Below are positions 1 to 21,760 of a DNA stretch of 64,000 nucleotides, one piece after another. The DNA is taken from the NCBI GenBank assembly GCA_963662795.1, contig OY759746.1:1632001-1696000 (forward strand), read 5' to 3'. Both the position numbers and the translations under genes were made by a program. Position 1 is the first letter of the stretch; each line of letters opens with the position of its first letter. Source of the stretch: Spirochaetia bacterium (lineage in GTDB: Bacteria; Spirochaetota; Spirochaetia; CADAEX01). A model generated the notes under the pieces. The model ran no database searches. It was not told the origin of the DNA and worked only from the letters and a program-made list of their open reading frames with translations.

Positions 1-670
1 TTGTCTTAGGGGGCCATATTTCACAATGGCGACACTTGGAATGACATTAGCTATCAGAAATGCATTTTTAAACTGGGAGATGATTGGTAAAGCAGAAGGA
101 CTGCTTCTCCCGTTTCGAAGTTCAAATTCCTGGTTCTGGTTCCAGTTTACCGATAAAAAACCTTACTATTTTACTGCTTTGCTGCTGGTTATTTCTTTTA
201 TTATACTAAGTCTTAAAATATCAAGGTCACGATTCGGTTATGCTCTTAAAGCCATAAAAGAAAATGAAAATACAGCTTCGGCAGTAGGCATTGACAAGAC
301 CAAGTACAAGTTATACGCCATGGTAACAAGTACTGTTATGATAAGTATATGCGGTAGTTTTTATGCAAACTATATCCGCTTTGTCGATCCAGATGTTATG
401 GTAATCCCCAGATCAATTGAAATTGTTCTGCCTGTAATAATGGGTGGAATCGGAACAGTTATAGGACCTGTTATAGGCGCGATTATTTTTACTCCGTTAG
501 CGGAAATATTAAGAACGACTCTTGGCGGTTTTATGGCAGGAGCTCATTATGTAGTTATTGCTGTCATTATGATTTTGATTATAGAATTTAAACCAGACGG
601 TCTTCATCATTGGTTTATGACACATTATGTTCAGTTGTTGAAAGCAATAACTGGCAGAAAAGAAAAATAA
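1..670 (+). CDS. Liv/HAAT-type ABC transporter permease (LivM-like), 5' end lies outside the window
   Basis: The frame is open from base 2 and reads CLRGPYFTMATLG (LivM LRGxYF motif). It also has SRFGYALKAIKENE and GGIGTVIGPVIGA, with multiple hydrophobic helices. Confidence 0.9.
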   Translation, partial: CLRGPYFTMATLGMTLAIRNAFLNWEMIGKAEGLLLPFRSSNSWFWFQFTDKKPYYFTALLLVISFIILSLKISRSRFGYALKAIKENENTASAVGIDKTKYKLYAMVTSTVMISICGSFYANYIRFVDPDVMVIPRSIEIVLPVIMGGIGTVIGPVIGAIIFTPLAEILRTTLGGFMAGAHYVVIAVIMILIIEFKPDGLHHWFMTHYVQLLKAITGRKEK

Positions 671-685
671 TTTTTTGGAGAAATT

Positions 686-1411
686 ATGAATTTGTTAAAA
701 ATACAAGGTGTTTCAAAAGATTTTAAAGGTCTGCACGCTGTTGTAAATGTAAGCTTCAATGTCAATGAAGGAGAAATCGTTGGACTTATTGGTCCCAATG
801 GTGCCGGGAAAACTACATTATTTAATCTGGTAAGTAGATTTTTACCTGTTAGTTCCGGACGGATTTTTTTTGAAAATACTGAGATAACGAAGAAAAATCC
901 TGCGACAATAAGCAATATGGGAATTGCAAGAACTTTTCAGATTGTTCAACCTCTTCTGGAGCTGACAGTTCTTGAAAATGTAATGATTGGAGCAATGTTC
1001 GGAAGAAGCAATATCATACACAGAAAAACTGCAGAAAAAAAAGCTGAGGAGATAATAGAATTTACAGGTCTTTCCAGACAAAAAAACGAGCTGGCAAAGG
1101 TTCTCGGAACACCTGGAAGAAAAAGACTGGAGCTGTCAAGAGCTTTGGCTGCTGACCCCAAAATAATGCTGCTGGATGAAGTAATGGCAGGCCTGACTCC
1201 AACAGAAGTAGAAGAGTGTATGGAGTTGATACAGATGATTAATAAAAGAGGTATTACAATCCTGATGGTTGAACATGTTATGAGGGCGGTTATGAATATC
1301 TCACACAGGATTGTTGTACTAAATTACGGAAAAATGATTGCTGAAGGAATACCGGAAGAAATCAGTACAAACAAGGAAGTTATTGAAGTTTATCTCGGAA
1401 AGGATGAGTAA
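686..1411 (+). CDS. Liv-type ABC ATPase (LivG-like)
   Basis: Walker A GPNGAGKT, ARTFQ, LLDEVMAG, VEH, C-terminal VIEVYLG. GGAG RBS at 676-679. Confidence 0.93.
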   Translation: MNLLKIQGVSKDFKGLHAVVNVSFNVNEGEIVGLIGPNGAGKTTLFNLVSRFLPVSSGRIFFENTEITKKNPATISNMGIARTFQIVQPLLELTVLENVMIGAMFGRSNIIHRKTAEKKAEEIIEFTGLSRQKNELAKVLGTPGRKRLELSRALAADPKIMLLDEVMAGLTPTEVEECMELIQMINKRGITILMVEHVMRAVMNISHRIVVLNYGKMIAEGIPEEISTNKEVIEVYLGKDE

Positions 1412-2120
1412 TATGCTTGATGTTAAAAAATTAAATGTAGCATATGGTGATGTGCAGGTATTGTGGGATATTGATTTTGAAATTAAACAGGGCGAATTAG
1501 TTGCCTTGATAGGTTCAAACGGAGCCGGGAAAACAACAGTTTTAAAAACTATTTCCGGAATTCTCAAGCCAATTAGCGGGGAAATTATTTTTGAAGGACA
1601 GAATCTTGAAAATACCGGTTGTCCAACAGTTACCAGGGCAGGCTTGACACAGGTTCCTGAAGGACGACAAATATTTTATGACATGACTGTTTTGGAAAAC
1701 CTTGAGTTGGGCGGTTATGTTATGAAGGATAAGGAAAATAGAATTGAAAATATTGAAAAAATGCTGAAAATGTTTCCTCGTTTGAATGAAAGAAAGAAAC
1801 AGTTGGCAGGAACACTGAGCGGCGGTGAGCAGCAGATGCTTGCAATTGCCAGGAGTCTTATTCCTAATCCTAAACTGGTTATGCTTGACGAACCATCACT
1901 GGGCCTTGCCCCAAATCTTGTAAGTATGATCTTCGATACAATTAAAATATTAAGAGATGAAATAGGTCTTACCGTATTAATTGTCGAACAGGATGTTAAG
2001 AAAGCATTATCCATAGCTGAAAGAGGTTATGTATTTGAAAACGGTAAAATAGTACATAAAGGCAGTACTGAATCTTTAATTAATGATCCAGACATAAAAA
2101 AAATGTATTTGGGTCTTTAA
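1404..2120 (+). CDS. Liv-type ABC ATPase (LivF-like)
   Basis: GSNGAGKT, QVPEGRQIF, LSGGEQQML, LDEPSLGLAP. Start taken as ATG 1404 (or 1413) rather than 1338. Confidence 0.93.
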   Translation: MSNMLDVKKLNVAYGDVQVLWDIDFEIKQGELVALIGSNGAGKTTVLKTISGILKPISGEIIFEGQNLENTGCPTVTRAGLTQVPEGRQIFYDMTVLENLELGGYVMKDKENRIENIEKMLKMFPRLNERKKQLAGTLSGGEQQMLAIARSLIPNPKLVMLDEPSLGLAPNLVSMIFDTIKILRDEIGLTVLIVEQDVKKALSIAERGYVFENGKIVHKGSTESLINDPDIKKMYLGL

Positions 2121-2145
2121 TTTAAATAATTAATGGAGGTTATTT

Positions 2146-3399
2146 ATGAAAAGAATTTTGATTATTCTTTTAGTGCTCTGTGTGAGCGCAGGTGCTTTTG
2201 CAGGTGGCACAAAAGAAGCCGCCGGTGAAAAAGCCGGAGCCGATGTTGTAAAAATAGGTGCTATCTATCCGCTTACAGGCGGAGTTGCACCAATTGGTTT
2301 AAACATCAAGAAAGGTCTGGATTTCGCTGTTGAGGAAATTAATGGAAGTGGCGGAATTATGGGAAAACAGGTTAAAATCATTTATGGTGATTCAACCGGT
2401 GATCCGAAAGTAGGTATGGCTGAAGCAGAGAGACTGATTACACGGGAAGATGTATCAATAATAATTGGTTCTTATCAGAGTTCAGTATCAAATGTAGTTT
2501 CTGAGGTAGCACAGAGATATGAAACACCTAATATTACTGCTATTTCAACAGCTGATGTCATTACAACAAGAGGATATGATTATTTTTTTAGAATGGCTCC
2601 TACAAATATGCTCTTCCTGCGGGACATGATTCAGTATTGTGCAGATGTAAACGATAAATACAAGCTGGGTTATAAAACTGTGGGAATTATTACCGGTAAC
2701 GACCTTCTTGGACAGGAAAGCAGAAAATGGGCAAAATACTGGAGCGAAAAACTTGGCTTGAATGTAATCAGCGAAGTACAGTACACAATTAATGCTGTTG
2801 ATCTTTCTTCTGAAGTTCTTACTGTCAAGAAAGCAAATCCAGATATACTTGTTATTGATCCATATATTTCTGATGCTATACTGATTACCAAAACACTTCA
2901 TGAACAGGGCTTTACACCAAAAATTGTCATTGGAAAAGCAACCGGTCTAATTGATCCAAGTTATATTCCAACAGTTGGGGCTCTTGCAAACGGTGTTACT
3001 ACAGCAACCGAATGGAATGTTGATATTGTGAAAGCAGAAGCTGTGAATGCAAAATTCAACAAGAAATATGGAATTAATATGAATGGGCACTCTGCTGAAG
3101 TTTATACAGCTATGTATATAGTAAAAGAAGCTATTGAGAAAGCAAAGAGCACGGATAGAAAAGCTATAAAAACTGCTCTTGAAGATCTTGAAATAAATGA
3201 AAAATTTTCAAATGGTCAAAAAATAATATTACCTTATGATAAGATTAAATTTGATGACTATGAAAACGCAGCAGGAAAAAATACCAATCAGAATAAATAT
3301 GTCAAGTTAACTGTTGTTCAGATTCAGGATGGTAAATATATAACGGTATGGCCTTTTGAAGCTGCAGCTAAAGAACCAATTGTTCCCTTGAAATGGTAA
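2146..3399 (+). CDS. ABC substrate-binding protein, leucine-binding (Peripla_BP_6) family
   Basis: Signal peptide ending AFAGG, KIGAIYPLTG, AVEEINGSGGIMG, GSYQSSVS, YFFRMAP. GGAGG RBS. Confidence 0.9.
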   Translation: MKRILIILLVLCVSAGAFAGGTKEAAGEKAGADVVKIGAIYPLTGGVAPIGLNIKKGLDFAVEEINGSGGIMGKQVKIIYGDSTGDPKVGMAEAERLITREDVSIIIGSYQSSVSNVVSEVAQRYETPNITAISTADVITTRGYDYFFRMAPTNMLFLRDMIQYCADVNDKYKLGYKTVGIITGNDLLGQESRKWAKYWSEKLGLNVISEVQYTINAVDLSSEVLTVKKANPDILVIDPYISDAILITKTLHEQGFTPKIVIGKATGLIDPSYIPTVGALANGVTTATEWNVDIVKAEAVNAKFNKKYGINMNGHSAEVYTAMYIVKEAIEKAKSTDRKAIKTALEDLEINEKFSNGQKIILPYDKIKFDDYENAAGKNTNQNKYVKLTVVQIQDGKYITVWPFEAAAKEPIVPLKW

Positions 3400-3466: not shown

Positions 3467-4312
3467 TCAGTCAAGAATGTTTTTATAATTTTCCCTGTAT
3501 TGAAAGGGCGTGACCATATAGTATTTTTTAAATATTTTATAAAAATGACTTGTACTGTTAAAACCGCAGTCAAAAATTATATCTAAAACTTCAGTTGTAG
3601 TAAAAGCAAGTTTATAAGCAGCCCATGACATTCTTGCCTGTGTTACAACTTCAGTTATGGTTTTACCTGTTCTTTTTTTTAATTCTCTTTCTACATGCTC
3701 AGGCGATTTGTTACAAAGAGACACAAAACCCGGAACCCCTTTTGTGAAAAATTGAGGTTCCTGAATTCTTTTAATGGCATAGTTTAACCATTCTATTGCA
3801 CTGCCTGATTCTGATCCTGAAGCTGATTTAGCTATTACGCTGATCAGGTTGAGCAGGAATCTTTCAAGTTCAAATATTGATTTATCATTACTTGATAAAA
3901 GTCTGTTGAAATTAGTTTCAACCCAGCATTGCTGGAATAAATTCAGTTTAATTATGTCAGGATATTCAGGCTTGCTGTCAAAAAAAAATAATGAGTTATC
4001 GTGATACCTGGTTCTTATATGATTCATGGAATCAATCGGAAAAAAAATATGAAGCAATGAAAAACCTTCGTCATATTCCGGAAAACTATGTATATCAATA
4101 TTTGGTCTGATAAAAAGTAAATCGCCTTTTTTAATTGTCATTTTTTTGTTATTGATCAAGTGTGTTCCTGAGCTGTTTTCTGCATAAAGTATTTCAGCAT
4201 AATCATGTTCATGCGGCGGCAGAAAAGGTTTTATCTCTTTTCTAAGTTGATCAACTTTGTAATATCCAATCAGTGAAGAAGTAATTTCATTAGTCCAATA
4301 TAGTTTGAACAT
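3467..4312 (-). CDS. AraC-family transcriptional regulator (cupin sensor plus HTH), divergent from the transketolase operon
   Basis: N-terminal HEHDYAE cupin motif. C-terminal DCGFNSTSHFYKIFKKYYMVTPFQYR AraC signature. Confidence 0.9.
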   Translation of the reverse strand: MFKLYWTNEITSSLIGYYKVDQLRKEIKPFLPPHEHDYAEILYAENSSGTHLINNKKMTIKKGDLLFIRPNIDIHSFPEYDEGFSLLHIFFPIDSMNHIRTRYHDNSLFFFDSKPEYPDIIKLNLFQQCWVETNFNRLLSSNDKSIFELERFLLNLISVIAKSASGSESGSAIEWLNYAIKRIQEPQFFTKGVPGFVSLCNKSPEHVERELKKRTGKTITEVVTQARMSWAAYKLAFTTTEVLDIIFDCGFNSTSHFYKIFKKYYMVTPFQYRENYKNILD

Positions 4313-4467: not shown

Positions 4468-5301
4468 ATGCTAAAAGAAGATTTAGGTAAATTAATCAAG
4501 ATAGCTCAGGAAATAAGATTGCTGATATTAAAAACAACTCATACTGCCGGGTGCGGTCATACCGGCGGGTCATTATCTGAAGCTGATATCCTTACTGCAT
4601 TATATTTTAATATTATGAACATCGATCCTGCAAATCCGGGAAAAACTGATCGTGACAGATTTATTCTTTCCAAGGGACATGCGACACCCGGATTTTATTC
4701 TACTCTTGCAAGGAGAGGTTTTTTCCCCGTTGAGGTTCTTTCAACTTTTGATAAAGAAGAAAGTATTCTGCAGGGTCATCCTGATATGAATAAAACCCCA
4801 GGTGTTGATATGACAACCGGGTCGCTTGGGCAGGGGCTTTCCTGCGGAGTCGGGATGGCTATCGGCGGTGAAGACAGGAATAATAAATTTTATACATATG
4901 TACTTCTTGGTGACGGTGAATGCCAGGAAGGTCAGGTTTGGGAAACTGCGCTTTTCGCAGGCAGCAGAAAAGTAAAAAGAATAATAGCAATTACTGATTA
5001 TAATAAAGTTCAGCTTGCATCAACTGTTGATGAGACCTCATCTCTGGAACCTCTGGAAGATAAATGGAAAGCATTTGGATGGACTGTACTGAGATGTGAC
5101 GGACATGCTATGGAGAAACTGGTAGAGACATTAAACAGGGCAAAAAAGTTAAGTGAAACAGGACCGGTTGCGATTATTGCAGATACAGTCAAGGGTAAAG
5201 GCGTTTCCTTTATGCAGAATAAATGGCAATGGCACGGTAAGGCTCCGAACAAAGATGAATATGAACAGGCAGTTAACGAAGTATCTGGAGGTATAAAATA
5301 A
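4468..5301 (+). CDS. Split transketolase, N-terminal (TPP-binding) subunit, copy 1
   Basis: GHTGGSLS, LSKGHA, LQGHPD, TGSLGQG, GDGECQEGQVWE, TVKGKG, WHG. Confidence 0.93.
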   Translation: MLKEDLGKLIKIAQEIRLLILKTTHTAGCGHTGGSLSEADILTALYFNIMNIDPANPGKTDRDRFILSKGHATPGFYSTLARRGFFPVEVLSTFDKEESILQGHPDMNKTPGVDMTTGSLGQGLSCGVGMAIGGEDRNNKFYTYVLLGDGECQEGQVWETALFAGSRKVKRIIAITDYNKVQLASTVDETSSLEPLEDKWKAFGWTVLRCDGHAMEKLVETLNRAKKLSETGPVAIIADTVKGKGVSFMQNKWQWHGKAPNKDEYEQAVNEVSGGIK

Positions 5302-6242
5302 TGAAAATCGGAGAAGAGATTGCAGGCAGAGTAGCTTTTGGAAAAGCATTGGAAACGCTTGGAGAAAAATATCCGGATTTGGTTGTACTGGATTCCGATG
5401 TATGTGCATCAACGCAGACAAAATATTTTAAGGATAAATACCCGGAGAGATTTTATCAGATTGGAATAGCAGAAGCGACAATGATAGGTGTTTCTGCAGG
5501 ACTTGCAACAACAGGATTTATCCCTTTTGTCTCAGCGTTTGCGATATTTCTGGCGAAGAGAGCCGTTGATCAGATAAGGGTATCAATTGCCTATGCTGAT
5601 TTGAATGTAAAATTAAACGGAGGATATGGCGGACTCCCAACCGGACAGGCCGGGGCTACCCATTCATCGCTTGAAGATATTGCGATAATGAGAGCAATGC
5701 CTAATATGAAAGTATTTGTTCCCGCTGATCCAATGGAAACAGCCAAGGCAACAGAACTTTTAATTCAGACAAAGGGCCCCGCATACCTGCGGACTGTAAG
5801 GTGTCCGGTTCCTGTTATTTTTGACGATAATCACAAGCCCGAGTTTGGAAAGGCAACCGTTATTAATGAAGGAAAAGATATCGTAATAATTTCAACCGGC
5901 ATGATGACGCCAAAAGCGTTATTTGCTTCCGAAAAACTTAAAAAAAGCGGTATACATGCAAGAGTCATTCACATGGGAAGTATAAAACCGATTGACAGGG
6001 CTGCTGTTGTTAAAGCTGCCAAAGAGATAGGGACAATTATAACAATTGAGAACCACAGTATTTATGGCGGCCTCGGCAGCGCTATCGCAGAGATTGTCGG
6101 TGAGGAATATCCATGCAAGGTGAAAAGACTTGGTTTCAGGGATATATTCCCCGAATCAGGTAATGATGAATATCTATTCAGTAAATACGGGATGAATGTT
6201 GAAAACATTGAAGCTGCGGCTAAAAAAGAATTAGGTGTATAA
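5301..6242 (+). CDS. Split transketolase, C-terminal subunit, copy 1 (atypical active-site loop)
   Basis: GIAEATM, RAVDQIR, GATH, PAYLR, ENHSIYGGLGSA. Translationally coupled to the previous gene (TAATG). Confidence 0.92.
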   Translation: MKIGEEIAGRVAFGKALETLGEKYPDLVVLDSDVCASTQTKYFKDKYPERFYQIGIAEATMIGVSAGLATTGFIPFVSAFAIFLAKRAVDQIRVSIAYADLNVKLNGGYGGLPTGQAGATHSSLEDIAIMRAMPNMKVFVPADPMETAKATELLIQTKGPAYLRTVRCPVPVIFDDNHKPEFGKATVINEGKDIVIISTGMMTPKALFASEKLKKSGIHARVIHMGSIKPIDRAAVVKAAKEIGTIITIENHSIYGGLGSAIAEIVGEEYPCKVKRLGFRDIFPESGNDEYLFSKYGMNVENIEAAAKKELGV

Positions 6243-6243
6243 A

Positions 6244-7260
6244 ATGAAAGCGGTAGTCTGGGAAAATAAGGATGTAATAAACTTAAGTGAAGTTCCGGTT
6301 CCTGTCCCCGGGAAAGATGAAGCTTTAATAAAGGTCATAATGACCGGTATATGCGGATCTGATCTTACGATAATTTCCGGTAAACATCCAAGGGCTAAAA
6401 CTCCAACTGTTATTGGCCATGAATTTATCGGTATAGTTGAAGAAATAAATGGAAAATCAGATTCATTTAGTGTCGGCGACAGGGTTGCTGTCGAACCGCT
6501 GCTTTCATGTGGGCATTGCAAACATTGTCTGAACGGAAACGCCCATGTCTGCGGAACACTAAGGCTTCTGGGCATTGAAGCACCGGGTGCTTTCGCCGGG
6601 TATGCAACAGCACCGTTGAAAAAAATATTTAAGCTTCCTTCCAATATTTCTGATATTTCTGCTGTACTTTTAGAGCCGTTATCTGTAGCAGTGCATACTC
6701 TGAATTACAGCATGCTTCAGAAAGGAGAAGATGTCTCTGTAATTGGCGCCGGCCCCATTGGTTTATTGTGTGCTGAAGTCGCAAGAGCAAAGGGCGCAGG
6801 AAAAATATTTGTTTCTGAGGTTAATGCAGATAGAATTTTGATGGCTCAGAAAATGGGTTTTACAACAATAGATTCAAAAAAAACAGATCCGGTTGATTAT
6901 ATTCTGAAAGATACGAATGGAAAGGGTTCTGAAGTTACAATTGATGCTGCAGGTTCAAAACATACAGGAATGTTATTGATACCGATGACATCAATCAAGG
7001 GAAGAATAATGATGGCAGCCCTTCACAAGGAACCATGTGAAATTAATTTTCAGCAGTTGTCATACAGAGAACAAAAAATAATTGGCATAAGGATATATGC
7101 CGAAGGAGATTTTTCTGAATCTATTAAACTGCTTGAGAATAAAAAAATAAAAATAGAATCACTTGTAACAGGAATTTTCAGCATGGATGAATATCATCTG
7201 GCATTTGATAAAGCTAAAAATGATTCGGCAAGCTGCAAGATTGTAATTCGGCAGGATTAA
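6244..7260 (+). CDS. Zn-dependent medium-chain dehydrogenase (polyol/sugar-acid dehydrogenase-like)
   Basis: GICGSD, GHE, CGHCKHC..C structural Zn site, EPL, GAGPIG. Alternative start GTG 6235. Confidence 0.88.
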   Translation: MKAVVWENKDVINLSEVPVPVPGKDEALIKVIMTGICGSDLTIISGKHPRAKTPTVIGHEFIGIVEEINGKSDSFSVGDRVAVEPLLSCGHCKHCLNGNAHVCGTLRLLGIEAPGAFAGYATAPLKKIFKLPSNISDISAVLLEPLSVAVHTLNYSMLQKGEDVSVIGAGPIGLLCAEVARAKGAGKIFVSEVNADRILMAQKMGFTTIDSKKTDPVDYILKDTNGKGSEVTIDAAGSKHTGMLLIPMTSIKGRIMMAALHKEPCEINFQQLSYREQKIIGIRIYAEGDFSESIKLLENKKIKIESLVTGIFSMDEYHLAFDKAKNDSASCKIVIRQD

Positions 7261-7277
7261 AAATAATTATACAGCAG

Positions 7278-8126
7278 GTGAAATTTGTGAACAATGAATT
7301 ATCTGATTTATTAACTGAAAAAGCATTGAAAATACGACAAAACATCCTGAAAATGGTGGGCATTAAAAAAGCCGGACACCTGGGAGGGGCTGCCTCAATT
7401 GCGGAAATAGTCTCTGCGCTGTATTTTTACAAACTGGGTATTTCGATAAATAATTTTCAGCAATTGGACCGCAACAGGTTTATCATAAGCAAGGGTCATG
7501 CTGTTCTGACTCAATATGCGGCCCTTGCTGAACTTGGATTTTTCCCTGTTGAAGAACTGGGAAAAACAAAGACGCTGAGTGGTCTGTTGCAGGGCCATCC
7601 TGACTTGTCAATTCCGGGGATCGAGGCGGTTACTGGATCGCTTGGGCAGGGACTTTCAATTGCGCTGGGAATGGCATTGTCCATGCGGTTGGATAATATT
7701 GCTAAAAGAGTTTACGTAATTTTGGGTGACGGGGAACTGGCAGAAGGGCAGATTTGGGAAGCAGCCATGGCTGCTAATAATTTTAAAGTTAACAATATTA
7801 CGGCAATTATTGATTATAATAAAATCCAGTCTACAGGAAGAACAGAAGAAGTTTTCAACATACCTTATTTGCGGGATAAGTGGAGTTCCTTTGGATGGAA
7901 TGTTATTGAAATCAATGGACATGATATTAACGGTATTGTCACGGCATTTGATGAAAGTGAGAAAGCAGTTGAAAAACCAACCGTGATTATTGCTGATACT
8001 ATTAAAGGGAAAGGCTTTTCTTTCGCAGAGGACAGTGCCGCATATCATAACACAGAACTATCAGATGATTTGTTTAAAAAGGCATTTGATGAACTTGAAA
8101 TCCGTGCAGGGGAATTAAAGTCATGA
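7278..8126 (+). CDS. Split transketolase, N-terminal subunit, copy 2
   Basis: GHLGGA, SKGHA, LQGHPD, TGSLGQG, GDGELAEGQIWE, TIKGKG. Confidence 0.93.
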   Translation: MKFVNNELSDLLTEKALKIRQNILKMVGIKKAGHLGGAASIAEIVSALYFYKLGISINNFQQLDRNRFIISKGHAVLTQYAALAELGFFPVEELGKTKTLSGLLQGHPDLSIPGIEAVTGSLGQGLSIALGMALSMRLDNIAKRVYVILGDGELAEGQIWEAAMAANNFKVNNITAIIDYNKIQSTGRTEEVFNIPYLRDKWSSFGWNVIEINGHDINGIVTAFDESEKAVEKPTVIIADTIKGKGFSFAEDSAAYHNTELSDDLFKKAFDELEIRAGELKS

Positions 8127-9064
8127 GAGAAAACAAAAGTCTGAGAGAAGCCTACGGAAAAACTTTATTAAAACTCGGCAGTGATAATAAAAATATTGTA
8201 GTCCTTGAAGCTGATCTTGGAAAATCAACAAAGTCGAATATCTTCGGCGATAATTTCCCGGAACGTTATTTTCAGATGGGTATTTCGGAACAGAATATGG
8301 CCTCAACAGCTGCCGGTTTTGCATTATCAGGGAAGATACCTTATATACATTCATTTGCGGTGTTTGTTTCCGGAAGAACCTATGATCAGATCCGTAATTC
8401 GATTTGTGTGCCTGATTTAAAAGTGAGAATTTGCGGCTCTTCAAGCGGCTTGTCAGATTATGCTGATGGTAAAACCCATCAGGCACTTGAAGATGTAGCA
8501 ATAATGAGAGCCCTTCCCGCTATGAAGGTGTATTGTCCACTCGACTATCATGAAACTGAAATGATAGTTAAAAAAACCGCAGATATAGAAGGGCCGGTAT
8601 ATCTGAGAATCAATCGAAATGAACTACCTGTTTATTTTAATGGCAGTGAGAATTATGAACTGGGAAAGATTTCGAAAATCAGGGATGGAAATGATATAGT
8701 TGTCTTTGCAAATGGAATAATGGTTTCGCAGGCTGACTTGGCTGCCGGGTTACTTGAGTCTAAAGGACTTTCCGTGAAAATTATTAACGTTAGCAGCATT
8801 AAGCCTATCGATAAAGAAGGAATCATCCGTGAATCCAAAGGGATGAGGGCGGTCTTCGTTGCGGAAGAGCACAATGTTATCGGCGGTCTTGGCAGCGCAG
8901 TAGCAGAAGTCCTGGTGGGATCTTATTCCGGAAATTTTGAAATCATCGGTGTTAATGATGAGTATGGCAGATCTGCAGAAAATTATAATATTCTATTAAA
9001 ACATTATAAGCTGGATTCCATTAGCATTGTTGAAAGAGTAGAAAAAATATTTGGAGGAAAATAA
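8123..9064 (+). CDS. Split transketolase, C-terminal subunit, copy 2
   Basis: EADLGKST, GISEQNM, RTYDQIR, DGKTHQ, EEHNVIGGLGSA. ATGA overlap with the previous gene. Confidence 0.92.
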   Translation: MRENKSLREAYGKTLLKLGSDNKNIVVLEADLGKSTKSNIFGDNFPERYFQMGISEQNMASTAAGFALSGKIPYIHSFAVFVSGRTYDQIRNSICVPDLKVRICGSSSGLSDYADGKTHQALEDVAIMRALPAMKVYCPLDYHETEMIVKKTADIEGPVYLRINRNELPVYFNGSENYELGKISKIRDGNDIVVFANGIMVSQADLAAGLLESKGLSVKIINVSSIKPIDKEGIIRESKGMRAVFVAEEHNVIGGLGSAVAEVLVGSYSGNFEIIGVNDEYGRSAENYNILLKHYKLDSISIVERVEKIFGGK

Positions 9065-10443
9065 TGGAAGCGAAAGAAATGGTAGCTGCCCTGATAAAAA
9101 GAGGGAGGGCAGCTCAGAAGATAGCGGACGGATACAGCCAGGAAAAGGTTGATGAACTTGTAAAGGCGATATCATGGGCTATAGTAAAGAAGGAAAACTC
9201 GGAAAAAATAGCGCGCCTTGCGGTGGATGAATCGCAGCTCGGACACTATGAAGGAAAATACGGAAAGCTCCAGAAGAAAATCCGCGGTGTAGTTCGTGAT
9301 GTGGCCGGAGTAAAATCTGTAGGTATAATTGAGCGTGATGAGAAAAAAGGACTCCTTAAAATAGCAAAACCTGTTGGAGTAATAGGGGCGCTTGTCCCCT
9401 GCACAAATCCTGAGGCGACCCCTGTAATCAAGGCGATAAACTCGATCAAGGGAAGAAACGCAATCATCTTCGCGCCGCACCCGAGGACAAAGAAAACCAA
9501 TACCCTTATAGTAAACATTATGAGGGACGCGCTTAAAAGACACGGAGCGCCTGAAGACCTTATAATCGGAATAGAAGAGCCTTCGATGGACGCAAGCGGA
9601 GAGCTTATGGCCCAGTGCGACCTTGTTGTTGCAACAGGCGGGGCAGGGATGGTAAAAGCTGCATATTCTTCCGGTACTCCTGCATACGGAGTAGGTGCCG
9701 GAAACGTTGTAGTTGTAGTTGATGAGACAGCAGACTTTAAAGACAGCGCAAAGAAGATAATGCTGAGCAAGACATTTGATCTTGCAACCAGCTGCAGCGC
9801 GGACAATAATATCGTTCTTGTCGATGAGGTTTATGAAAAAATGCTTGATGAGCTTAAGGCAGTGGGCGGGTACATGTGCTCATCCGATGAGAAGGCAAAG
9901 CTTCAGAAGGTAGTCTTTCCAGATAATCATCTCGGACGAGACCATGTCGCACAGAGTGCACAGAAGATAGCATCCCTTGCGGGGTTTAAAATACCTGAAG
10001 GTGTAACCTTCATCCTTGTTGAGGAAGACGGTGTAGGGGCAAGCCATCCGTTCAGCAGAGAGAAGATGAGCGTAATCGCAGCTGTTCATAAAGTAGCTGA
10101 TTTTAAAGCCGCGATTGATAAGGTAAACGAGATAACATCCTATCAGGGCGCGGGGCACTCCTGTGGACTTTACTCAACTGATATGAAGCGGATAGAAGAG
10201 TACGGTCTTAAAACAAAGACAAGCCGCGTAATGATAAGGCAGCCGCAGGTGTTCGGGAACAGCGGAAACTGGGACAACGGTCTTCCATTTACTCTTACCC
10301 TCGGATGCGGGACATGGGGAGGCAACATCTCAAGCGAGAACATCACCTGGAAGCATTTTATCAACATAACATGGCTTTCGATGCCTATCCCTGAGGTAAT
10401 ACCCAGAGATGAGGACCTCTTCGGCGATATCATGAAGGAATAA
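9064..10443 (+). CDS. CoA-acylating aldehyde dehydrogenase (EutE/AdhE-N family; resembles sulfoacetaldehyde dehydrogenase SauS/SqwD type)
   Basis: KPVGVIGALVPCTNP, ATGGAGMVKAAYSSG, GVGAGN, SKTFDLATSCS (catalytic Cys), REKMS, GHS, NGLPFTLTLGCGTWGGN. Confidence 0.85.
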   Translation: MEAKEMVAALIKRGRAAQKIADGYSQEKVDELVKAISWAIVKKENSEKIARLAVDESQLGHYEGKYGKLQKKIRGVVRDVAGVKSVGIIERDEKKGLLKIAKPVGVIGALVPCTNPEATPVIKAINSIKGRNAIIFAPHPRTKKTNTLIVNIMRDALKRHGAPEDLIIGIEEPSMDASGELMAQCDLVVATGGAGMVKAAYSSGTPAYGVGAGNVVVVVDETADFKDSAKKIMLSKTFDLATSCSADNNIVLVDEVYEKMLDELKAVGGYMCSSDEKAKLQKVVFPDNHLGRDHVAQSAQKIASLAGFKIPEGVTFILVEEDGVGASHPFSREKMSVIAAVHKVADFKAAIDKVNEITSYQGAGHSCGLYSTDMKRIEEYGLKTKTSRVMIRQPQVFGNSGNWDNGLPFTLTLGCGTWGGNISSENITWKHFINITWLSMPIPEVIPRDEDLFGDIMKE

Positions 10444-10481: not shown

Positions 10482-10519
10482 GGCTGACATGGAAAAATAC
10501 TCCCTGTCAGCCATTTTTT
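10482..10519 (+). terminator. Intrinsic terminator closing the transketolase/ALDH operon
   Basis: GGCTGACA(10482-89)...TGTCAGCC(10505-12) followed by TTTTTT. Confidence 0.7.
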
Positions 10520-10733
10520 ATTCTGGAATATTTAAAAAAAATAGTCTTTCCTCTGAAGTACTTAAATCTAAACCTGAATCTAGTCAAGTATTGTTTTTAG
10601 AAAAATAGCATGGATAACCTCTATAGTATATTTTAATACAAATGGAAATTTTTGAGATCTTACTTTTCTAATTTATAATAGTCATTAAATGGAATCAAAT
10701 TAAAATAAGTCGATGTCTTTATGCAAAAAAAAG

Positions 10734-10797: not shown

Positions 10798-12282
10798 ATG
10801 GTCACTACTTGTAATTATGATTTGACAATTATTGGTGCTGGGATTATTGGAGCGATGATAGCGAAAGAATTGTCACAATATAATATTAAAGTCGCAATTC
10901 TTGAAAAGAAAACTTCACCTGGAAGTGATGTCTCAAAAGCAGGACTTTCAGCGCTTCATTCTCCTGATTTTTGTCCCAATAACTCACTAAAAGAAAAATT
11001 TTGTATTAATGCATTTGATAGATATAAAAATATCTCAGAAGAGTTAAACGTTAGATTTAAGGAATTTGATGAACTTAGACTTGCATTTAAAAATGAAGAT
11101 TTATTGAAATTAGAAAAATATAAAGAATATGGAGAAAGTCTTGGTCTTTATAATTATGAAATATTAAATCAGCAGAATATAAAAAAAATTGAACCTTTTG
11201 TTACAGAAAAAGCAATAGGTGCCTTAAAAATTAAAAAATTAGGAAGTATATATCCTCCTGAATGGTGTTTCGCACTTCTGGAATATGCACAGATAAATGG
11301 AGTAGAGGTTTTTTTAGACACCGAAGTAACAGGCATCGAAAAAATTGGAAATATAGATTGTTCATATGTTGTCAAAACAACAAAAGGTAATTTTCACACA
11401 AAAAGCATAGTTAACTGTGCCGGCCTTTATGTAGATAAAATAGCGGCTATGATTGGAGACAATTATATAAAAATAAATTATGAAAAAGCAACTATGGCAA
11501 TTCTGGATAAATCTGTTTCTTATTTAACAGATAATATGATTTATGGGTCCTTCTCCCCTACACACAGTCAGGTTATTGCTCCAACAGCACATGGGAATTT
11601 AATCATCGGGTTGGGATATTTTACTAAACCCGATAATAAGGAAGATGTAAGTATCGAAAGAGGGAAAATTAAAGAAATTGCAAATATGGCAAAACAGTTA
11701 ATTCCTGGAATTAATGAACGTGATATTATTACCAGTTTTTCAGGAATAAAATCAGAAAATGATTTAACAAATAAAGATTTTTATATTGATTATTCAAAAA
11801 CATCTCCTGGGATCATTCATGTGGTAATTGGTTCCCCCGGTTTGACTGCTGCTCCAGCAATCAGTGAATATGTGAGCAATTTGCTTAATTTTAAGTATTT
11901 TAAATTATTAAAAAAAGAAACAGCAGTTAAAAAAAGGGAAATAATAAAAAGATATTCTGAACTTGATAAAGATGAAGTTAAAAAAATAATAGAGACAAAT
12001 CCAAAGTACGCAAAGATAATTTGTAGATGCGAAAAAATCACTGAAGCAGAAATTATTGAAGCAGTGAGACGCGGTGCAGTGACAGTAGATGCTGTGAAAC
12101 ATTATACCAGAGCAGGTATGGGGAGATGTCAAGGCGGTTTTTGCGGGCCGGCAATATTAAATATTATTTCTCGGGAATTAGAATGTCCAATTATAAAAAT
12201 AAATAAAAACAATAATGATTCAGTGATTGTAAAGGGATACACCAAACAGACAGAAGAAGAGGTTTTGTATGAAAAATATTGA
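10798..12282 (+). CDS. FAD-dependent oxidoreductase with C-terminal BFD-like [2Fe-2S] domain (GlpA/LhgO-like), copy 1
   Basis: IIGAGIIG, VNCAGLYVD, PTAHGN, SPGLTAAPA, ICRCE...RAGMGRCQGGFC. Confidence 0.85.
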   Translation: MVTTCNYDLTIIGAGIIGAMIAKELSQYNIKVAILEKKTSPGSDVSKAGLSALHSPDFCPNNSLKEKFCINAFDRYKNISEELNVRFKEFDELRLAFKNEDLLKLEKYKEYGESLGLYNYEILNQQNIKKIEPFVTEKAIGALKIKKLGSIYPPEWCFALLEYAQINGVEVFLDTEVTGIEKIGNIDCSYVVKTTKGNFHTKSIVNCAGLYVDKIAAMIGDNYIKINYEKATMAILDKSVSYLTDNMIYGSFSPTHSQVIAPTAHGNLIIGLGYFTKPDNKEDVSIERGKIKEIANMAKQLIPGINERDIITSFSGIKSENDLTNKDFYIDYSKTSPGIIHVVIGSPGLTAAPAISEYVSNLLNFKYFKLLKKETAVKKREIIKRYSELDKDEVKKIIETNPKYAKIICRCEKITEAEIIEAVRRGAVTVDAVKHYTRAGMGRCQGGFCGPAILNIISRELECPIIKINKNNNDSVIVKGYTKQTEEEVLYEKY

Positions 12283-13513
12283 TCTAGCTATTATCGGTGG
12301 AGGTCCAGCTGGCTTGGCAGCCGCTATAAAAGCTAAAAAAATGGGAATAAAAGATATAGTAATATTTGAAAGAGATAGTTTCCCTGGTGGTATATTAAAA
12401 CAATGTATCCACAACGGATTTGGGCTTGAAATATTTGATGAAGAATTAAGCGGTCCTGAATATGCTGAAAGATATATTAAACTTGCAGAAAAGGAAAAAA
12501 TAAACATTGAACTTAACAGCATGGTTGTTGATTTAAATAAAGACAAGGAGATAACTGTTGTCAGCCCCTATAGTGGTTATAACGAGTATAAATGCAAGAC
12601 AATTATTTTGAGTATGGGGTGCCGGGAGAGACCACGTGGCGCAACCGACATTGCCGGGACAAGACCGGCTGGCGTATATACAGCCGGACATGCACAGCGG
12701 CTGATAAATATTGAAGGAATTATGCCAGGTTATAAAGTTGTTATTTTCGGTTCTGGTGATATTGGAATGATTATGGCGAGAAGAATGACACTTGAAGGCG
12801 CCAAAGTTGAAGCAGTTTTAGCCAGAAGGCCATATGCCAATGGTTTAACCAGAAATATTGTTCAATGTTTAAATGATTATGATATTCCTTTGCTTTTAAA
12901 GACAGGAATAACAGAAATATATGGCCAATCAAGAGTAGAAGGTGTTGCTATTGTTGAATATGATGAAGGTTTAAATCCAGTTCCTAATACTGAAAAATAT
13001 ATTGAATGTGATACTGTATTACTTTCTGTTGGTCTTGTTCCGGAAAATGAGTTGACGAAATTGACTGGACTAAAAATGGATAATAAAACAGGTGGACCTT
13101 ATATTAATAATTGGTTTGAAACCGCTATTCCAGGATTATTTGCATGCGGTAATGTCGTACATGTAAATGATATAGTTGATAACGTTTCACTGGAAGGAGA
13201 GATCGCGGCAATTGGTGCGTATAATAGACTTAATAATATTAATACGGATAAATCATCAATTAATATTGAGTGCTCGGAAGATACAATAAGCCAAATTATT
13301 CCTCATCAGATAGTCAATTTTGATTATGATGTCAACATCAATTTTAGAGTCCGTAAACCTATGGGAAAAAATATTATAAAGATTGGCAGGTATATGGAAA
13401 AAAAATATTCATTCCAGAAACCGGCTGAAATGATAAGAATAAAAATACCTAAAAAAATACTGAGAGAAATGAAAAATGAGAAAAATGTTAAAATATCCTG
13501 CCAGGAAGTATAA
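12269..13513 (+). CDS. NAD(P)/FAD-dependent pyridine nucleotide-disulfide-type oxidoreductase (partner subunit of the GlpA-like module)
   Basis: IIGGGPAGLAAA, GGILKQCIHNGFG, GCRERPRG, GSGDIG, ECDTVLLSVGLVPENEL, FACGNVVHV. Confidence 0.85.
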   Translation: MKNIDLAIIGGGPAGLAAAIKAKKMGIKDIVIFERDSFPGGILKQCIHNGFGLEIFDEELSGPEYAERYIKLAEKEKINIELNSMVVDLNKDKEITVVSPYSGYNEYKCKTIILSMGCRERPRGATDIAGTRPAGVYTAGHAQRLINIEGIMPGYKVVIFGSGDIGMIMARRMTLEGAKVEAVLARRPYANGLTRNIVQCLNDYDIPLLLKTGITEIYGQSRVEGVAIVEYDEGLNPVPNTEKYIECDTVLLSVGLVPENELTKLTGLKMDNKTGGPYINNWFETAIPGLFACGNVVHVNDIVDNVSLEGEIAAIGAYNRLNNINTDKSSINIECSEDTISQIIPHQIVNFDYDVNINFRVRKPMGKNIIKIGRYMEKKYSFQKPAEMIRIKIPKKILREMKNEKNVKISCQEV

Positions 13514-13525
13514 AGGGAAAAAATT

Positions 13526-13885
13526 ATGAAGAATGTTAAAGAAATCATCTGTGTAATATGCCCAAATGGATGCGTCATAGAAGTTGGTGAAGAAGATAAT
13601 GAAATTAAGATTAATGGTAAATGTTGTAAGAGAGGTAAAGAATATATTCTTCAGGAATATATAGAACCAAAGCGAGTAATTACAACCACTGTAAAAATAG
13701 TTTCTAAATTAAGAAAAACACTGCCTGTAAAAACTAGTTCAGGTATTTTGAAAAAAGACATCTTTATGTTTATGAACAAAATAAAAAATACTATTGCTGA
13801 ACCTCCGGTTGTTGTTGGACAGATAATATATAAAGATGTTTTTGAAGGAATTGATTTAATATCAGAAGATGAAATAAAAGAATGA
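13526..13885 (+). CDS. DUF1667-type small Cys-rich protein (third subunit of the GlpA-like module)
   Basis: ICVICPNGC...CKRG...PKRVITTTV...LPVKT, typical of this family in this position. Confidence 0.8.
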   Translation: MKNVKEIICVICPNGCVIEVGEEDNEIKINGKCCKRGKEYILQEYIEPKRVITTTVKIVSKLRKTLPVKTSSGILKKDIFMFMNKIKNTIAEPPVVVGQIIYKDVFEGIDLISEDEIKE

Positions 13886-13895
13886 GTAGGCTAAA

Positions 13896-15344
13896 ATGAA
13901 AGATCAAATATTTGATGTCGTGGTTATTGGCGCCGGCATTAGCGGAACTTTTCTGGCAAGAGAATTGAGCCGTTATAAGCTAAAAGTATTATTACTTGAA
14001 AAAGAAAAATCGCCAGGTTTCGGCGGGACAAAAGCGGGATTGTCCCAGATTCATGCCGCTGATTTTTGCCCGGTTAACACCTTGAAGGCAAAATTCTGTC
14101 TTAATGCTGCTTCCCGATTTGAAAAAATATCCAAAGATCTTGACTTGTATTTTAGAAAGACCAGCGAATTATGGCTTGCTTTTAATGATGATGATATAAA
14201 AACAATAAATAATGCTAAAGAAAGGGCGGAAAGCATTGGAACTGAAGGGTTATCAATAATAACCAGAGAAGAAGCTTTAAAAATAGAACCTGGTATCAAT
14301 CCCGCAATTATTGCTGCATTATATGCTAAAAATATGGGAGTTGTATATCCTCCCGAATGGTGTTTCGCTCTAGTTGAAAATTCCATCGAAAACGGGTTGA
14401 TTTATAAATCATCAACAGCTGTTGAAAATATTGAAAGATTACCGAAAGGAACATATAAGATAATTACAAATCAGGGAATATTTGAAACTAATTTTGTTGT
14501 GAATACTGCCGGGCTAAATGCTGATAAAATCGCACATTTAACCAGAGATGATGATTTAGAATTAATTTTCAGAAAAGGAACCATGGTGATTTTTGACAAA
14601 GCGGTATCAGGAATTGTTAATAGTATGATACTTGGTACACCATCTCCTCAGTATAGTAAAAATATTGCACCAACTGCTCATGGAAATATCATTGCTGGAC
14701 TCGGTTATTTTACAAAGCCTGAGAATCAATATGATACATCAATAGAACGCGGCATGATTAATGAAGTAATGAAATTTACAAAACAATTAGTTCCTGCTCT
14801 TTCTATACGCGATATAATAACTTCTTTTGCTGGAATATATGTACTTAATAACAAATGCGATAACGGAGATTATTATATAAATCATTCAAAAAAATCTCCA
14901 GGAGTAATTCATGCACTGATAGGAGCCCCTGGTCTCACCACTGCGCCTGCGGTTGCAGAATATATAATTAAACTTTTAGCAGAAGCAGATTTAAAATTGG
15001 AAAAGAAAAATAATTTTATAGAAAAAAGGAAAGGCATAAAAAAATTCAATGAACTGAATAAAAATGAAATAAAGCAATATATCAGTGATAATAAGATGTG
15101 GGCTAAAATAATCTGCCGTTGTGAAAAGATCAGTGAAGCAGAAATAGTTGAGGCAATCAGAAGGGGCGCAACTACAATTGATGAAATTAAGCATTACACT
15201 CGGGCTGGTATGGGAAGGTGTCAGGGAGGTTTCTGTACACCTGCAATTTTAAAAATACTTGCACGTGAAACAGGATTGCCGATAACTCAAATTACCAAAA
15301 ACAATAATAATTCTATTATGGTTAAGAATTTTACTAAAATATAA
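13896..15344 (+). CDS. FAD-dependent oxidoreductase with BFD-like [2Fe-2S] domain, copy 2 (paralog of 10798..12282)
   Basis: Shares YPPEWCFAL, IAPTAHGN..GLGYFTKP and KHYTRAGMGRCQGGFC with copy 1. Confidence 0.85.
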   Translation: MKDQIFDVVVIGAGISGTFLARELSRYKLKVLLLEKEKSPGFGGTKAGLSQIHAADFCPVNTLKAKFCLNAASRFEKISKDLDLYFRKTSELWLAFNDDDIKTINNAKERAESIGTEGLSIITREEALKIEPGINPAIIAALYAKNMGVVYPPEWCFALVENSIENGLIYKSSTAVENIERLPKGTYKIITNQGIFETNFVVNTAGLNADKIAHLTRDDDLELIFRKGTMVIFDKAVSGIVNSMILGTPSPQYSKNIAPTAHGNIIAGLGYFTKPENQYDTSIERGMINEVMKFTKQLVPALSIRDIITSFAGIYVLNNKCDNGDYYINHSKKSPGVIHALIGAPGLTTAPAVAEYIIKLLAEADLKLEKKNNFIEKRKGIKKFNELNKNEIKQYISDNKMWAKIICRCEKISEAEIVEAIRRGATTIDEIKHYTRAGMGRCQGGFCTPAILKILARETGLPITQITKNNNNSIMVKNFTKI

Positions 15345-15410
15345 TAATTATCAATATTACAAATTAATATTGATTTTATTAATATAATAATAGTTTCTAA
15401 GGAGTTATTT

Positions 15411-15788
15411 ATGGTACCAAAGTATCAAGTTAAGAAAAAGATCAGTGATGTCCCCTGGGAAGAGCATTTCATGGATGACGGGGGAAGTAGAATTAAATGG
15501 ATATATACTAGAGAAAATGACGGTACGCCAATTGCTGTCATGTATATTGAACTCAGGGAAGGCTTGTCACTTCCTGAGCATGTACACCGGGATCAACCGG
15601 ATTTAGTTCATGTTCTTGAAGGTGAGGCAACTATGTTTATTGAAGGAGAAGGGGAATTCCCTCTTGAAGCAGGAATGGTTGTAATGGTGCCTCCTAATAC
15701 AAAACACACAATAAAAAACATTAAAAAAACTGTTAAGTTATATAATGTTTTTGCACCTGCAATGCCTTATATGCCTGCGAAAAAATAA
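15411..15788 (+). CDS. Cupin-domain protein
   Basis: PEHVH..DLVHVLEG and GMVVMVPPNTKHTI cupin motifs 1 and 2. AAGGAG RBS. Confidence 0.85.
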   Translation: MVPKYQVKKKISDVPWEEHFMDDGGSRIKWIYTRENDGTPIAVMYIELREGLSLPEHVHRDQPDLVHVLEGEATMFIEGEGEFPLEAGMVVMVPPNTKHTIKNIKKTVKLYNVFAPAMPYMPAKK

Positions 15789-17291: not shown

Positions 17292-17413
17292 TTATTTATT
17301 AAACTTGTTGAATATAAAGATGATATTTTTTAAACGATGCAAAGTTTATAAAAGGATTAGATTTATTGGTATTGCTAAATACAAATTTAATAATTGAAGG
17401 AGAATAAAATCTG

Positions 17414-18490: not shown

Positions 18491-18495
18491 GTGTA

Positions 18496-19728: not shown

Positions 19729-19763
19729 TTTACTTTAAAGCGGATAATATGCCAGGAGGAATA

Positions 19764-20660: not shown

Positions 20661-20686
20661 TAATTATAACCAATGGAGGTTAACAG

Positions 20687-21565: not shown

Positions 21566-21596
21566 TAATCGAGGTTTTTGTAAATAATCGACAATA

Positions 21597-21629: not shown

Positions 21630-21760
21630 ACTGTTAAGAGGCATATCTTTCAGCCGGTCAGATATACTTTAAAAAATCCTGATTCAACTTGCCGAACCGG
21701 TGAGGATTTATATAGATGAATCCTGGTTAATCTTTAAGAAAATATCCTTAGGAGAAAAAT

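Follow-up and report, generated by a model that had tools for sequence, protein, structure and literature searches.

A kinase-free operon with two split transketolases and a CoA-acylating aldehyde dehydrogenase in a Spirochaetia genome, a candidate route for sugar-acid catabolism ending in malonyl-CoA

Transketolase (TK) is usually regarded as a phosphosugar enzyme, and to our knowledge the sulfoglycolytic transketolase (sulfo-TK) pathway is the only described catabolic use of it on non-phosphorylated anionic sugars. As outlined in PMC9594981, PMC12890257 and PMC11659671, which cover Clostridium sp. MSTE9 and an Acholeplasma variant, this pathway comprises SqvD/SqvB, the split transketolase SqwGH, the isomerase SqwI, and either SqwF or SqwD together with SqwKL. 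Here we describe an operon at positions 4468-10443 of a 64,000-nt stretch of DNA from a Spirochaetia bacterium (assembly GCA_963662795.1, contig OY759746.1), which we call the window and which corresponds to G000:C1:1632001-1696000. The operon encodes two different split transketolases (TK1 and TK2), a zinc-dependent dehydrogenase (Zn-DH) and a CoA-acylating aldehyde dehydrogenase (ALDH). Its source genome, G000, is a single contig of 3.93 Mb, estimated to be 98% complete with 5.7% contamination. A reading made from the letters of the window (the sequence-only reading) had proposed that the operon encodes a variant of the sulfo-TK pathway. We find that it resembles sulfo-TK in outline yet lacks several genes that define that pathway, and it is likely to be best filed as a variant of transketolase-dependent, kinase-free catabolism with a malonyl-CoA exit.

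The likeness to sulfo-TK lies in the use, proposed here, of a split transketolase without a kinase on a non-phosphorylated, terminally anionic ketose, and in a proposed aldehyde end product of the form OHC-CH2-X that is oxidised in both by a CoA-acylating ALDH from one broad family. The two systems differ in that there are two transketolases of separate clades here and not one, that a zinc dehydrogenase stands in place of the PF02502 isomerase, and that the ALDH clade is associated with genes of inositol and malonyl-CoA metabolism and not with sulfo-TK clusters. They also differ in what is missing. Using the defining families given in PMC9594981, we found no match anywhere in the G000 genome to SqvD (PF02952) and none to GH31 (PF01055, the family of YihQ-type sulfoquinovosidases), the NAD-dependent sulfoquinovosidases of GH188 not having been searched. 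DUF4867 (SqvB, PF16161) is not in the operon, and its only match in the genome is marginal (30.6 bits) and lies some 105 kb distant, at 1747559. No PF02502 (RpiB/LacAB) isomerase corresponding to SqwI is present in the operon, where TK-C1 is followed by the Zn-DH, a medium-chain dehydrogenase, and TK-C2 by the ALDH. The operon likewise contains no SqwF reductase, no SqwKL-type ADP-forming ligase and no sulfonate exporter, the ALDH standing alone, and the absence of sulfoquinovosidase and CoA ligase genes remarked on in the sequence-only reading thus holds for the operon. Together with the placement of the ALDH apart from the sole context-defined SqwD-like clade (see below), these absences leave the assignment of the operon to the sulfo-TK pathway unsupported.

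A cluster that does resemble the published sulfoacetate variant of sulfo-TK is present in another member of the class (G037:C48; L135 8934-19417). It encodes DUF4867, a DASS carrier, succinyl-CoA-synthetase-like alpha and beta subunits, an ALDH (47%), a ROK protein, TK-N, TK-C and RpiB, and next to it is a true IolG gene (430/355).

Gene calls were made from a list of open reading frames and from Pfam and NCBIfam profile scans of the window proteins, and the operon was recovered gene for gene as it had been read from the sequence. All six genes lie on the forward strand, beginning with TK-N1 (4468-5301; Transketolase_N, 171 bits), the thiamine diphosphate (ThDP)-binding subunit of TK1, and TK-C1 (5301-6242; Transket_pyr 127 bits, Transketolase_C 102 bits), its Pyr/C subunit. 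These are followed by the Zn-DH, of the polyol/aldonate type (6235-7260; ADH_N 106 bits, ADH_zinc_N 69 bits), the corresponding TK2 subunits TK-N2 (7278-8126; Transketolase_N, 148 bits) and TK-C2 (8123-9064; 128 and 70 bits), and the ALDH (9064-10443). The two transketolases are clearly different, as had been noted, with 43.8% identity between the N subunits and 38.3% between the C subunits. A role of these subunits in acetoin or butanediol cleavage was considered and rejected, the N subunits scoring 171 and 148 bits on Transketolase_N and 31-33 bits on E1_dh. A Pfam scan identified no kinase gene within the operon.

The junctions from TK-N1 to the ALDH measure -1, -8, +17, -4 and -1 nt, a spacing that indicates tight (translational) coupling of the six genes. 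At four of the five junctions the start codon overlaps the preceding stop codon, and all six reading frames are intact. An AraC-family regulator (3467-4312, reverse strand; HTH_18 61 bits, AraC_binding 27 bits, HTH_AraC) is divergently transcribed, as previously suggested, and is separated from TK-N1 by an AT-rich intergenic region of 155 nt. The terminator that had been read after the ALDH (10482-10520, forward strand) is also supported by folding: a hairpin at 10482-10512 followed by a U-run has a predicted energy of -18 kcal/mol (z = -3.3, with 1 of 200 shuffles equally good), and we therefore regard it as real. A consensus terminator scan gave no match 3' of the ALDH because of the hairpin loop.

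Both transketolases of the operon belong to specialised accessory clades. The genome encodes a canonical full-length TK (47.6% identity to E. coli TktA over 655 residues) in addition to four split pairs, and the split pairs are thus accessory. The ThDP-binding and catalytic residues H26, H66, H100, D155, N185, H261, E411 and H473 are all kept in TK1 and TK2 (numbered as in E. coli TktA, with positions checked against the K-12 tktA translation), as are the anion-site residues R358, S385 and R520. The other transketolases of G000 likewise retain their cofactor and catalytic residues, and the differences among them lie at the substrate site. The housekeeping phosphosugar site (R358, S385, H461, D469 and R520) is not intact in either enzyme, TK1 having H461Y and D469A and TK2 having H461S. 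At positions 358/385/411/461/469/473/520, E. coli TktA and the canonical split TKs read RSEHDHR (13 of 13 in one family, plus four others), TK1 and its database relatives read RSE-Y-A-HR (Y461 in all 120; residue 469 is A in 112, S in 4 and G in 4), and TK2 and its clade read RSE-S-D-HR (19/19). TK1 and TK2 therefore represent two large accessory clades, each with its own active-site signature. A fourth split TK of G000, at 787730-789480 (L138 8697-10967) and beside a canonical RpiB, has an anion site that is strongly altered, with S385G, H461C, D469L and R520S.

Position D469 of the E. coli enzyme binds the 2-hydroxyl of the released aldehyde, and the presence of Ala469 in TK1 and Asp469 in TK2 fits a scheme in which one transketolase releases an OHC-CH2-X aldehyde and the other a 2-hydroxy aldehyde. 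Residues A469 and S461, natural in TK1 and TK2 respectively, are among those introduced into E. coli TK by engineering (D469A/T and H461S). In the account of PMC3657141, D469A has higher activity on propionaldehyde and H461S on both glycolaldehyde and propionaldehyde, and the D469A/T and H461S substitutions open the enzyme in the laboratory to non-hydroxylated or non-phosphorylated aldehydes. The residues here differ from the engineered ones in being clade-wide natural signatures of split, short-type TKs, and from them we would expect, by inference from the residues, similar effects.

The genomic contexts of the two clades are also distinctive. In a tree of TK-C subunits (36 rows, after removal of 15 near-duplicates), TK1 groups with the proteins of loci L049-L051 (SH-aLRT 97), and TK2 groups, on a long branch, with a TK3-type clade that precedes tartronate-semialdehyde reductase (SH-aLRT 100). 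Context-defined proxies, such as the G037 TK and ALDH, stood in our trees for authentic SqwGH, SqwD, SauS, AptAB and EutE; the G037 TK, from the cluster resembling the sulfo-TK variant and hence the SqwGH proxy, falls outside both clades and has the signature R-A-E-D-N-H-R. The TK1 relatives (61-70% identity; L049 8166-12476, L050 8145-11570 and L051 5059-10579) form triads of TK-N, TK-C and a PRK09273 RpiB-like protein of 210 aa in all three loci, accompanied by Gfo/Idh/MocA dehydrogenases (3/3 full-length loci), sugar ABC carriers and IolD-like ThDP enzymes (two of the three).

Relatives of TK2 (52-57%) lie in clusters of GntR, TK-N, TK-C, a reductase and a short-chain dehydrogenase/reductase (SDR) in all seven Spirochaetia loci fetched (L161-L167), six of which also encode TRAP or TTT carriers. 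G000 itself has a TK2-clade paralogue, TK3, in a cluster of the same layout (G000:C1:534941-541000; L137 3387-10730), and the reductase of this cluster, the one that was scanned among TK2-type clusters, scores above the equivalog cut-off for tartronate-semialdehyde reductase (474/397). Carriers of the TRAP and TTT types transport acids, and these together with the reductase tie the TK2 clade to carboxylated, non-phosphorylated substrates. As an observation in its own right, the GntR-split TK (S461/D469)-reductase-SDR cluster may represent an undescribed transketolase route from keto-aldonic acids to glycerate. The D-apiose route, mentioned in PMC13753588 and named for comparison in the sequence-only reading, is a further case of a catabolic sugar cluster with an accessory split TK, AptA/AptB; it uses a kinase and a phosphorylated donor, whereas the operon here has no kinase. 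We found no literature on apulose together with transketolase.

For the ALDH, the decisive findings are its copy number and genomic contexts. Three copies are present in G000: copy A at 1627567 in a myo-inositol (iol) operon, copy B in the window, and copy C at 2254728. They are 2-7 aa and 18-34 nt apart, with DNA identities of 98.5% and 97.4% by blastn, and the DNA identity is limited to the gene, beginning at the ribosome-binding site some 12 nt ahead of the ATG and ending with the stop codon. In the window this cassette of ribosome-binding site and coding sequence spans 9052-10443 on the forward strand, and the final codons of TK-C2 fall within the shared ribosome-binding site. Other acylating ALDH paralogues in G000 are only 43% and 38% identical, and the nearest named relative of the window ALDH is a protein from a Spirochaetales metagenome-assembled genome (96%).

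Copy A is the last gene of a LacI-iolB-iolD-iolE-iolG operon (L011 9566-16946, equivalent to G000:C1:1621566-1628946), in which IolD, IolE and IolG score above their equivalog cut-offs (931/715, 424/290 and 485/355). An ALDH orthologue closes the iol operon in all five related genomes examined, namely the same-genus genomes (congeners) G001 (96% identity) and G002 (90%), and the further relatives G005, G008 and G011 (75-77%). In Bacillus-type myo-inositol catabolism it is IolA, a methylmalonate-semialdehyde dehydrogenase (MMSDH), that turns malonate semialdehyde into acetyl-CoA. No MMSDH/IolA scores above cut-off in G000 (249/448.5), and the ALDH thus fills the IolA slot, taking the last-gene place of the iol operon in this family with the same expected substrate. 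It differs from IolA in being of the AdhE-N/SucD/SauS-like acylating type and not an MMSDH, and is presumably non-decarboxylating, yielding malonyl-CoA for a separate Na+-pumping decarboxylase. Next to the iol operon, some 15 kb upstream of TK-N1 and 20 kb upstream of the window ALDH, is a gene for an ADP-forming acyl-CoA synthetase; in four of the five relatives (G001, G005, G008 and G011) such a gene and one for a 318-aa protein without a Pfam match are divergent beside the iol operon.

Copy C follows a TctCBA-SDR-ThDP enzyme-SDR gene set and lies 555 nt before the mmdA-gamma-biotin carrier-beta genes of a Na+-translocating decarboxylase. A similar association is seen at class level, where eight loci from other families encode ALDH homologues of 53-55% identity with mmdA in six, a class-III aminotransferase in five and at least one of these in all eight; three of them have the ALDH and mmdA side by side on the same strand. 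All five relatives also have mmdA. The ALDH is thus found beside malonate-semialdehyde-yielding pathways and a malonyl-CoA decarboxylase in the iol operons of the five relatives, at copies A and C, and at the eight class-level loci, and the iol-operon position and the mmdA and aminotransferase neighbours point to malonate semialdehyde as the substrate. Most likely the ALDH oxidises malonate (or methylmalonate) semialdehyde to its CoA thioester. We know of no curated model for a malonyl-CoA-forming acylating malonate-semialdehyde dehydrogenase, and found no literature on a catabolic enzyme of this kind feeding a decarboxylase in anaerobes. We also found none linking transketolase and malonic semialdehyde in a gene cluster, save one unrelated genome report.

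The sequence-only reading had taken two ALDH motifs as a sign of the SauS/SqwD subfamily. Both motifs are indeed present, SKTFDLATSCS at residue 235 and the second at residue 405, and the best NCBIfam model for the protein is SauS (NF047625). However, its score of 552.1 bits is under the cut-off of 600, and the model does not follow genomic context: the G037 ALDH from the cluster resembling the sulfo-TK variant scores 532.7, lower than the window ALDH and the iol-operon ALDHs of G005 (551.3) and G011 (572.5), with G000 copies A and C at 557.9 and 554.8. Likeness to SauS by motif or model is therefore not specific. In the ALDH tree, copies A, B and C lie within an iol-linked clade (SH-aLRT 99), and the G037 and G025 ALDHs form a separate clade (SH-aLRT 100). 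Clostridial proteins bearing the NCBI name SauS branch next to the iol-linked clade as its nearest outgroups, and the three Clostridial proteins scanned score 600.8-609 on NF047625. Other models match the window ALDH less well (AdhE N-terminal part 435 bits, EutH_ACDH 369 bits), and its closest solved structure is 8cei, an acylating succinate-semialdehyde dehydrogenase (330 bits). With SauS/SucD-type enzymes of this kind (8cei, and the Bilophila wadsworthia SauS of PMC10413351) it shares fold, chemistry and a preference expected for short aldehydes with a distal anion, but it falls under the SauS cut-off and occurs in other genomic contexts. The B. wadsworthia enzyme is described in PMC10413351 as NADP-dependent and running reductively in sulfoacetate respiration.

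The Zn-DH is less readily classified, and falls below all NCBIfam equivalog cut-offs, including those for Tdh (230.8/380), IolM (207.9/450) and the L-idonate 5-dehydrogenase IdnD (143.8/469). Its translation has a Cys-rich stretch, CGHCKHC...C, and its closest structure is E. coli RspB (177 bits). Homologues of 43-55% identity adjoin a transketolase in three of four loci (G478, G601 and G040). The TKs beside these homologues are fused proteins of about 700 aa in which R358 is replaced by A or S, S385 and H461 are lost, and residue 469 is N (L131 183-6364, L133 5480-8606 and L134 9644-15443). A TRAP carrier is present at one such locus, and the genes at the G040 locus include those for an aldehyde:ferredoxin oxidoreductase, an RbsD/FucU mutarotase and an ABC carrier of the ribose type.

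The operon lies in a 31.3-kb island (genome coordinates 1629005-1660336) that is missing from both congeners, as determined by blastn of their loci against G000. The island starts before the window and occupies its positions 1-28335 (no strand assigned). In G001 and G002 the iol-operon ALDH is followed, after about 55-180 nt, by DNA matching the window from 28336 onward, and the gene straight after the iol ALDH is the DMT_YdcZ gene found at window position 28337; this ALDH-DMT_YdcZ gene order is also seen in genus g4. We found no direct repeats at the island ends.

No second copy of the operon was found in searches across the phylum (401 genomes) and the class (301 genomes), the best matches being 53% for TK-C1, 55% for Zn-DH and 57% for TK-C2. 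In a set of 5.8 billion proteins no TK-C1 relative exceeds 70% identity, the best being at 70%. The Zn-DH is absent at E <= 1e-70 from all 19 same-family genomes searched; its best relatives in the protein set are one protein at 72% and one fragment at 93%, no TK-C1 match was found on the contigs bearing either of them, and a metagenome scan with the Zn-DH gave only relatives of up to 36%. The nearest relatives of the parts thus occur in differing contexts and no second copy was found, so that the combination is unique so far and the operon was probably assembled recently. Conservation of the gene combination in other genomes, on which the sequence-only reading in part depended, is not observed.

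Other parts of the island have contents of their own. Directly after the terminator, the window at 10798-15788 encodes two DAO+BFD flavoproteins, a Pyr_redox_2 protein, a DUF1667 protein and a cupin, which together are reminiscent of GlpA-like, opine or proline dehydrogenases. Further on, at 16251-28217, the island encodes two Zn-ADHs, UPF0261, a DHDPS-family protein, a creatininase-family protein, an SDR and a GntR regulator, as well as a second Liv-type ABC transporter in a stretch of 29% GC. ALDH copy C lies in a second island, of about 10 kb and also absent from G001 and G002 (L012 2490-12490; G000:C1:2246490-2256490), which carries DeoR, TctCBA, an SDR, an acetolactate-synthase-like ThDP enzyme, a further SDR and the ALDH. 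It sits between a class-III aminotransferase and the mmdA operon, which are adjacent in the two congeners.

Upstream of the TK operon, on the same strand, is a Liv/HAAT-type ABC transporter (26-3399, forward strand) with a permease (26-670), two ATPases (686-1411 and 1338-2120) and a Peripla_BP_6 binding protein (2146-3399) whose closest solved structure is 8wch (204 bits). The first genes of this transporter operon, located before the window start, encode an aldo-keto reductase and a DJ-1/PfpI protein. By position the transporter is a candidate uptake system for the TK operon.

From gene content, coupling, active-site signatures, clades, and the copy number and contexts of the ALDH, we infer the substrates and reactions of a pathway that we put forward tentatively as the best explanation of the locus: an operon that breaks down, by transketolase cleavage and without a kinase, a sugar derivative that bears no phosphate and is most likely carboxylated (an aldonic or deoxy-aldonic acid, for instance), ending in malonyl-CoA. 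The Zn-DH would oxidise the penultimate (omega-1) carbon of an imported acid polyol to give a ketol of the form HOCH2-CO-CHOH-R. Transfer of the C2 ketol unit by a transketolase to glyceraldehyde 3-phosphate or another phosphosugar acceptor would then free an acid semialdehyde. TK2, with Asp469, would release a 2-hydroxy semialdehyde of the tartronate-semialdehyde type, and TK1, with Ala469, would take 4-deoxy donors and release a semialdehyde without a 2-hydroxyl, which we take to be malonate semialdehyde. The ALDH would convert the latter, with CoA and NAD(P)+, to malonyl-CoA, and the Na+-translocating (methyl)malonyl-CoA decarboxylase (Mmd) of G000 would yield acetyl-CoA and a Na+ gradient. 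A candidate substrate pair is a 2-deoxy-pentonate and a pentonate, such as deoxyribonate and ribonate. Two other schemes, in which hexonates are cleaved serially to glyoxylate or 2,5-diketo-3-deoxygluconate is cleaved, are chemically possible and were set aside as not matching the ALDH contexts. In this proposal the earlier pathway logic survives in part: the kinase-free character, the two different specialised transketolases and the acyl-CoA-forming ALDH stand, and the sulfonate assignment and the membership of sulfo-TK are not supported.

Several points weigh against this proposal. The best NCBIfam match of the ALDH remains SauS, and its nearest non-spirochaete relatives (63-71%) carry the automatic NCBI name acylating sulfoacetaldehyde dehydrogenase. 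The ALDHs linked to mmdA or the aminotransferase split into two clades with the sulfo-TK-like pair between them, so that context and clade do not match cleanly. The iol route to malonate semialdehyde is not fully accounted for in this genus: IolC above cut-off was not found in G000 (104/300), G001, G002 or G011, and is present only in G005 and G008. Were malonate semialdehyde reached by two C2 cleavages in series, the starting acid would have to be an odd C7 compound, and the two transketolases have for this reason been modelled as acting in parallel and not in series. A transporter of the Liv/HAAT type is not usual as a sugar-acid carrier. Lastly, the operon is a unique mosaic, and conservation cannot vouch for a coherent pathway.

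Among the alternatives, the sequence-only reading in a sulfonate form is unlikely but accounts for several features. A sulfo-ketose would be shortened twice, TK2 releasing a 2-hydroxy sulfo-aldose that the aldo-keto reductase of the island and the Zn-DH isomerise to the sulfo-ketose, TK1 releasing sulfoacetaldehyde, and the ALDH forming sulfoacetyl-CoA. The contrast of D469 and A469 suits such a serial scheme, the carbon count suits a C6 sulfosugar, an aldo-keto reductase opens the neighbouring transporter operon, and SauS is the best model of the ALDH. Isomerisation of SE to SEu is reported in PMC9594981 as apparently spontaneous, a sulfo-TK pathway with the SqwD/SqwKL variant is reported in Spirochaetes (PMC12890257), and the G037 cluster shows that something like it occurs in this class. 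What weighs against a sulfonate is that G000 lacks SqvD and GH31 and has DUF4867 only as a weak match elsewhere, and that the operon is without the PF02502 isomerase, ligase and exporter. In addition, the ALDH belongs to the iol-linked clade apart from those of G037 and G025, the SauS model is blind to context, the TK2 clade accompanies tartronate-semialdehyde reductase, and neither transketolase clusters with that of G037. Malonate semialdehyde is the carboxylate isostere of sulfoacetaldehyde. A connection to inositol is suggested by the insertion of the island right behind the iol operon, with the same ALDH on board, in a genome without IolC or IolA above cut-off. The operon could then be the missing lower half of myo-inositol catabolism, transketolase cleavage replacing the kinase and aldolase steps from 5-deoxy-glucuronate or 2-deoxy-5-keto-gluconate without IolC and IolJ; the latter compound is itself a HOCH2-CO-CHOH-CHOH- ketol with a terminal carboxylate, and the Zn-DH is weakly similar to the keto-inositol dehydrogenase IolM. 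We consider this improbable, as cleavage of this C6 acid would by our reasoning leave a C4 hydroxy-semialdehyde in place of malonate semialdehyde, with a second transketolase step chemically blocked, the operon has its own AraC regulator and transporter, and in G001 and G002 the iol operon is retained although both the island and an IolC above cut-off are missing.

A 6-deoxy or 5-deoxy ketose cleaved by transketolase to acetaldehyde or lactaldehyde, with the ALDH acting as an ordinary acetaldehyde dehydrogenase to give acetyl-CoA, would agree with the AdhE N-terminal and EutH_ACDH scores, with A469 in TK1 (suited to an aldehyde without a 2-hydroxyl), and with the G040 locus in which a Zn-DH homologue accompanies an RbsD/FucU mutarotase, a TK and aldehyde:ferredoxin oxidoreductase. 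This is very improbable given the iol and mmdA contexts of the ALDH orthologues, the retention of R358, S385 and R520 in both transketolases, the TRAP/TTT carriers of the TK2 clade, which are acid carriers, and the presence in G000 of other acylating ALDH paralogues. Finally, recent recombination may have joined modules of three unrelated clusters into no coherent pathway, untuned by selection. The nearest relatives of TK1, Zn-DH, TK2 and ALDH each lie in different contexts, neither the 93% Zn-DH fragment nor the 72% homologue is accompanied by a close TK-C1 relative in the database, the island is missing from both congeners, and the ALDH junction falls exactly at a ribosome-binding site. Against this stand the six intact frames, the start/stop overlaps and the operon's own regulator and terminator, and we regard this too as improbable.

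The clades and contexts of the transketolases, together with the evidence on the ALDH, suggest that the logic of sulfo-TK, in which transketolase is applied to unphosphorylated anionic sugars, also extends to carboxylated sugars with an energy-conserving exit via malonyl-CoA. A wider reading, which we consider possible though doubtful, is that there is an undescribed kinase-independent catabolism of sugar acids in spirochaetes and other anaerobes, in which the Y461/A469 and S461/D469 transketolase clades would cut non-phosphorylated omega-1-keto aldonates and deoxy-aldonates to xylulose 5-phosphate and acid semialdehydes, tartronate semialdehyde passing to glycerate and malonate semialdehyde to malonyl-CoA with Na+ pumping. 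The operon described here would then be a rare joining of both transketolase clades and the malonyl-CoA branch in one transcription unit. If the proposed pathway is correct, the clades would provide natural transketolase scaffolds bearing substitutions that enzyme engineers introduce by hand, and 'SauS' annotations would be unsafe as evidence of sulfonate metabolism. It would likewise give anaerobes a further route for carbon derived from sugar acids and inositol.

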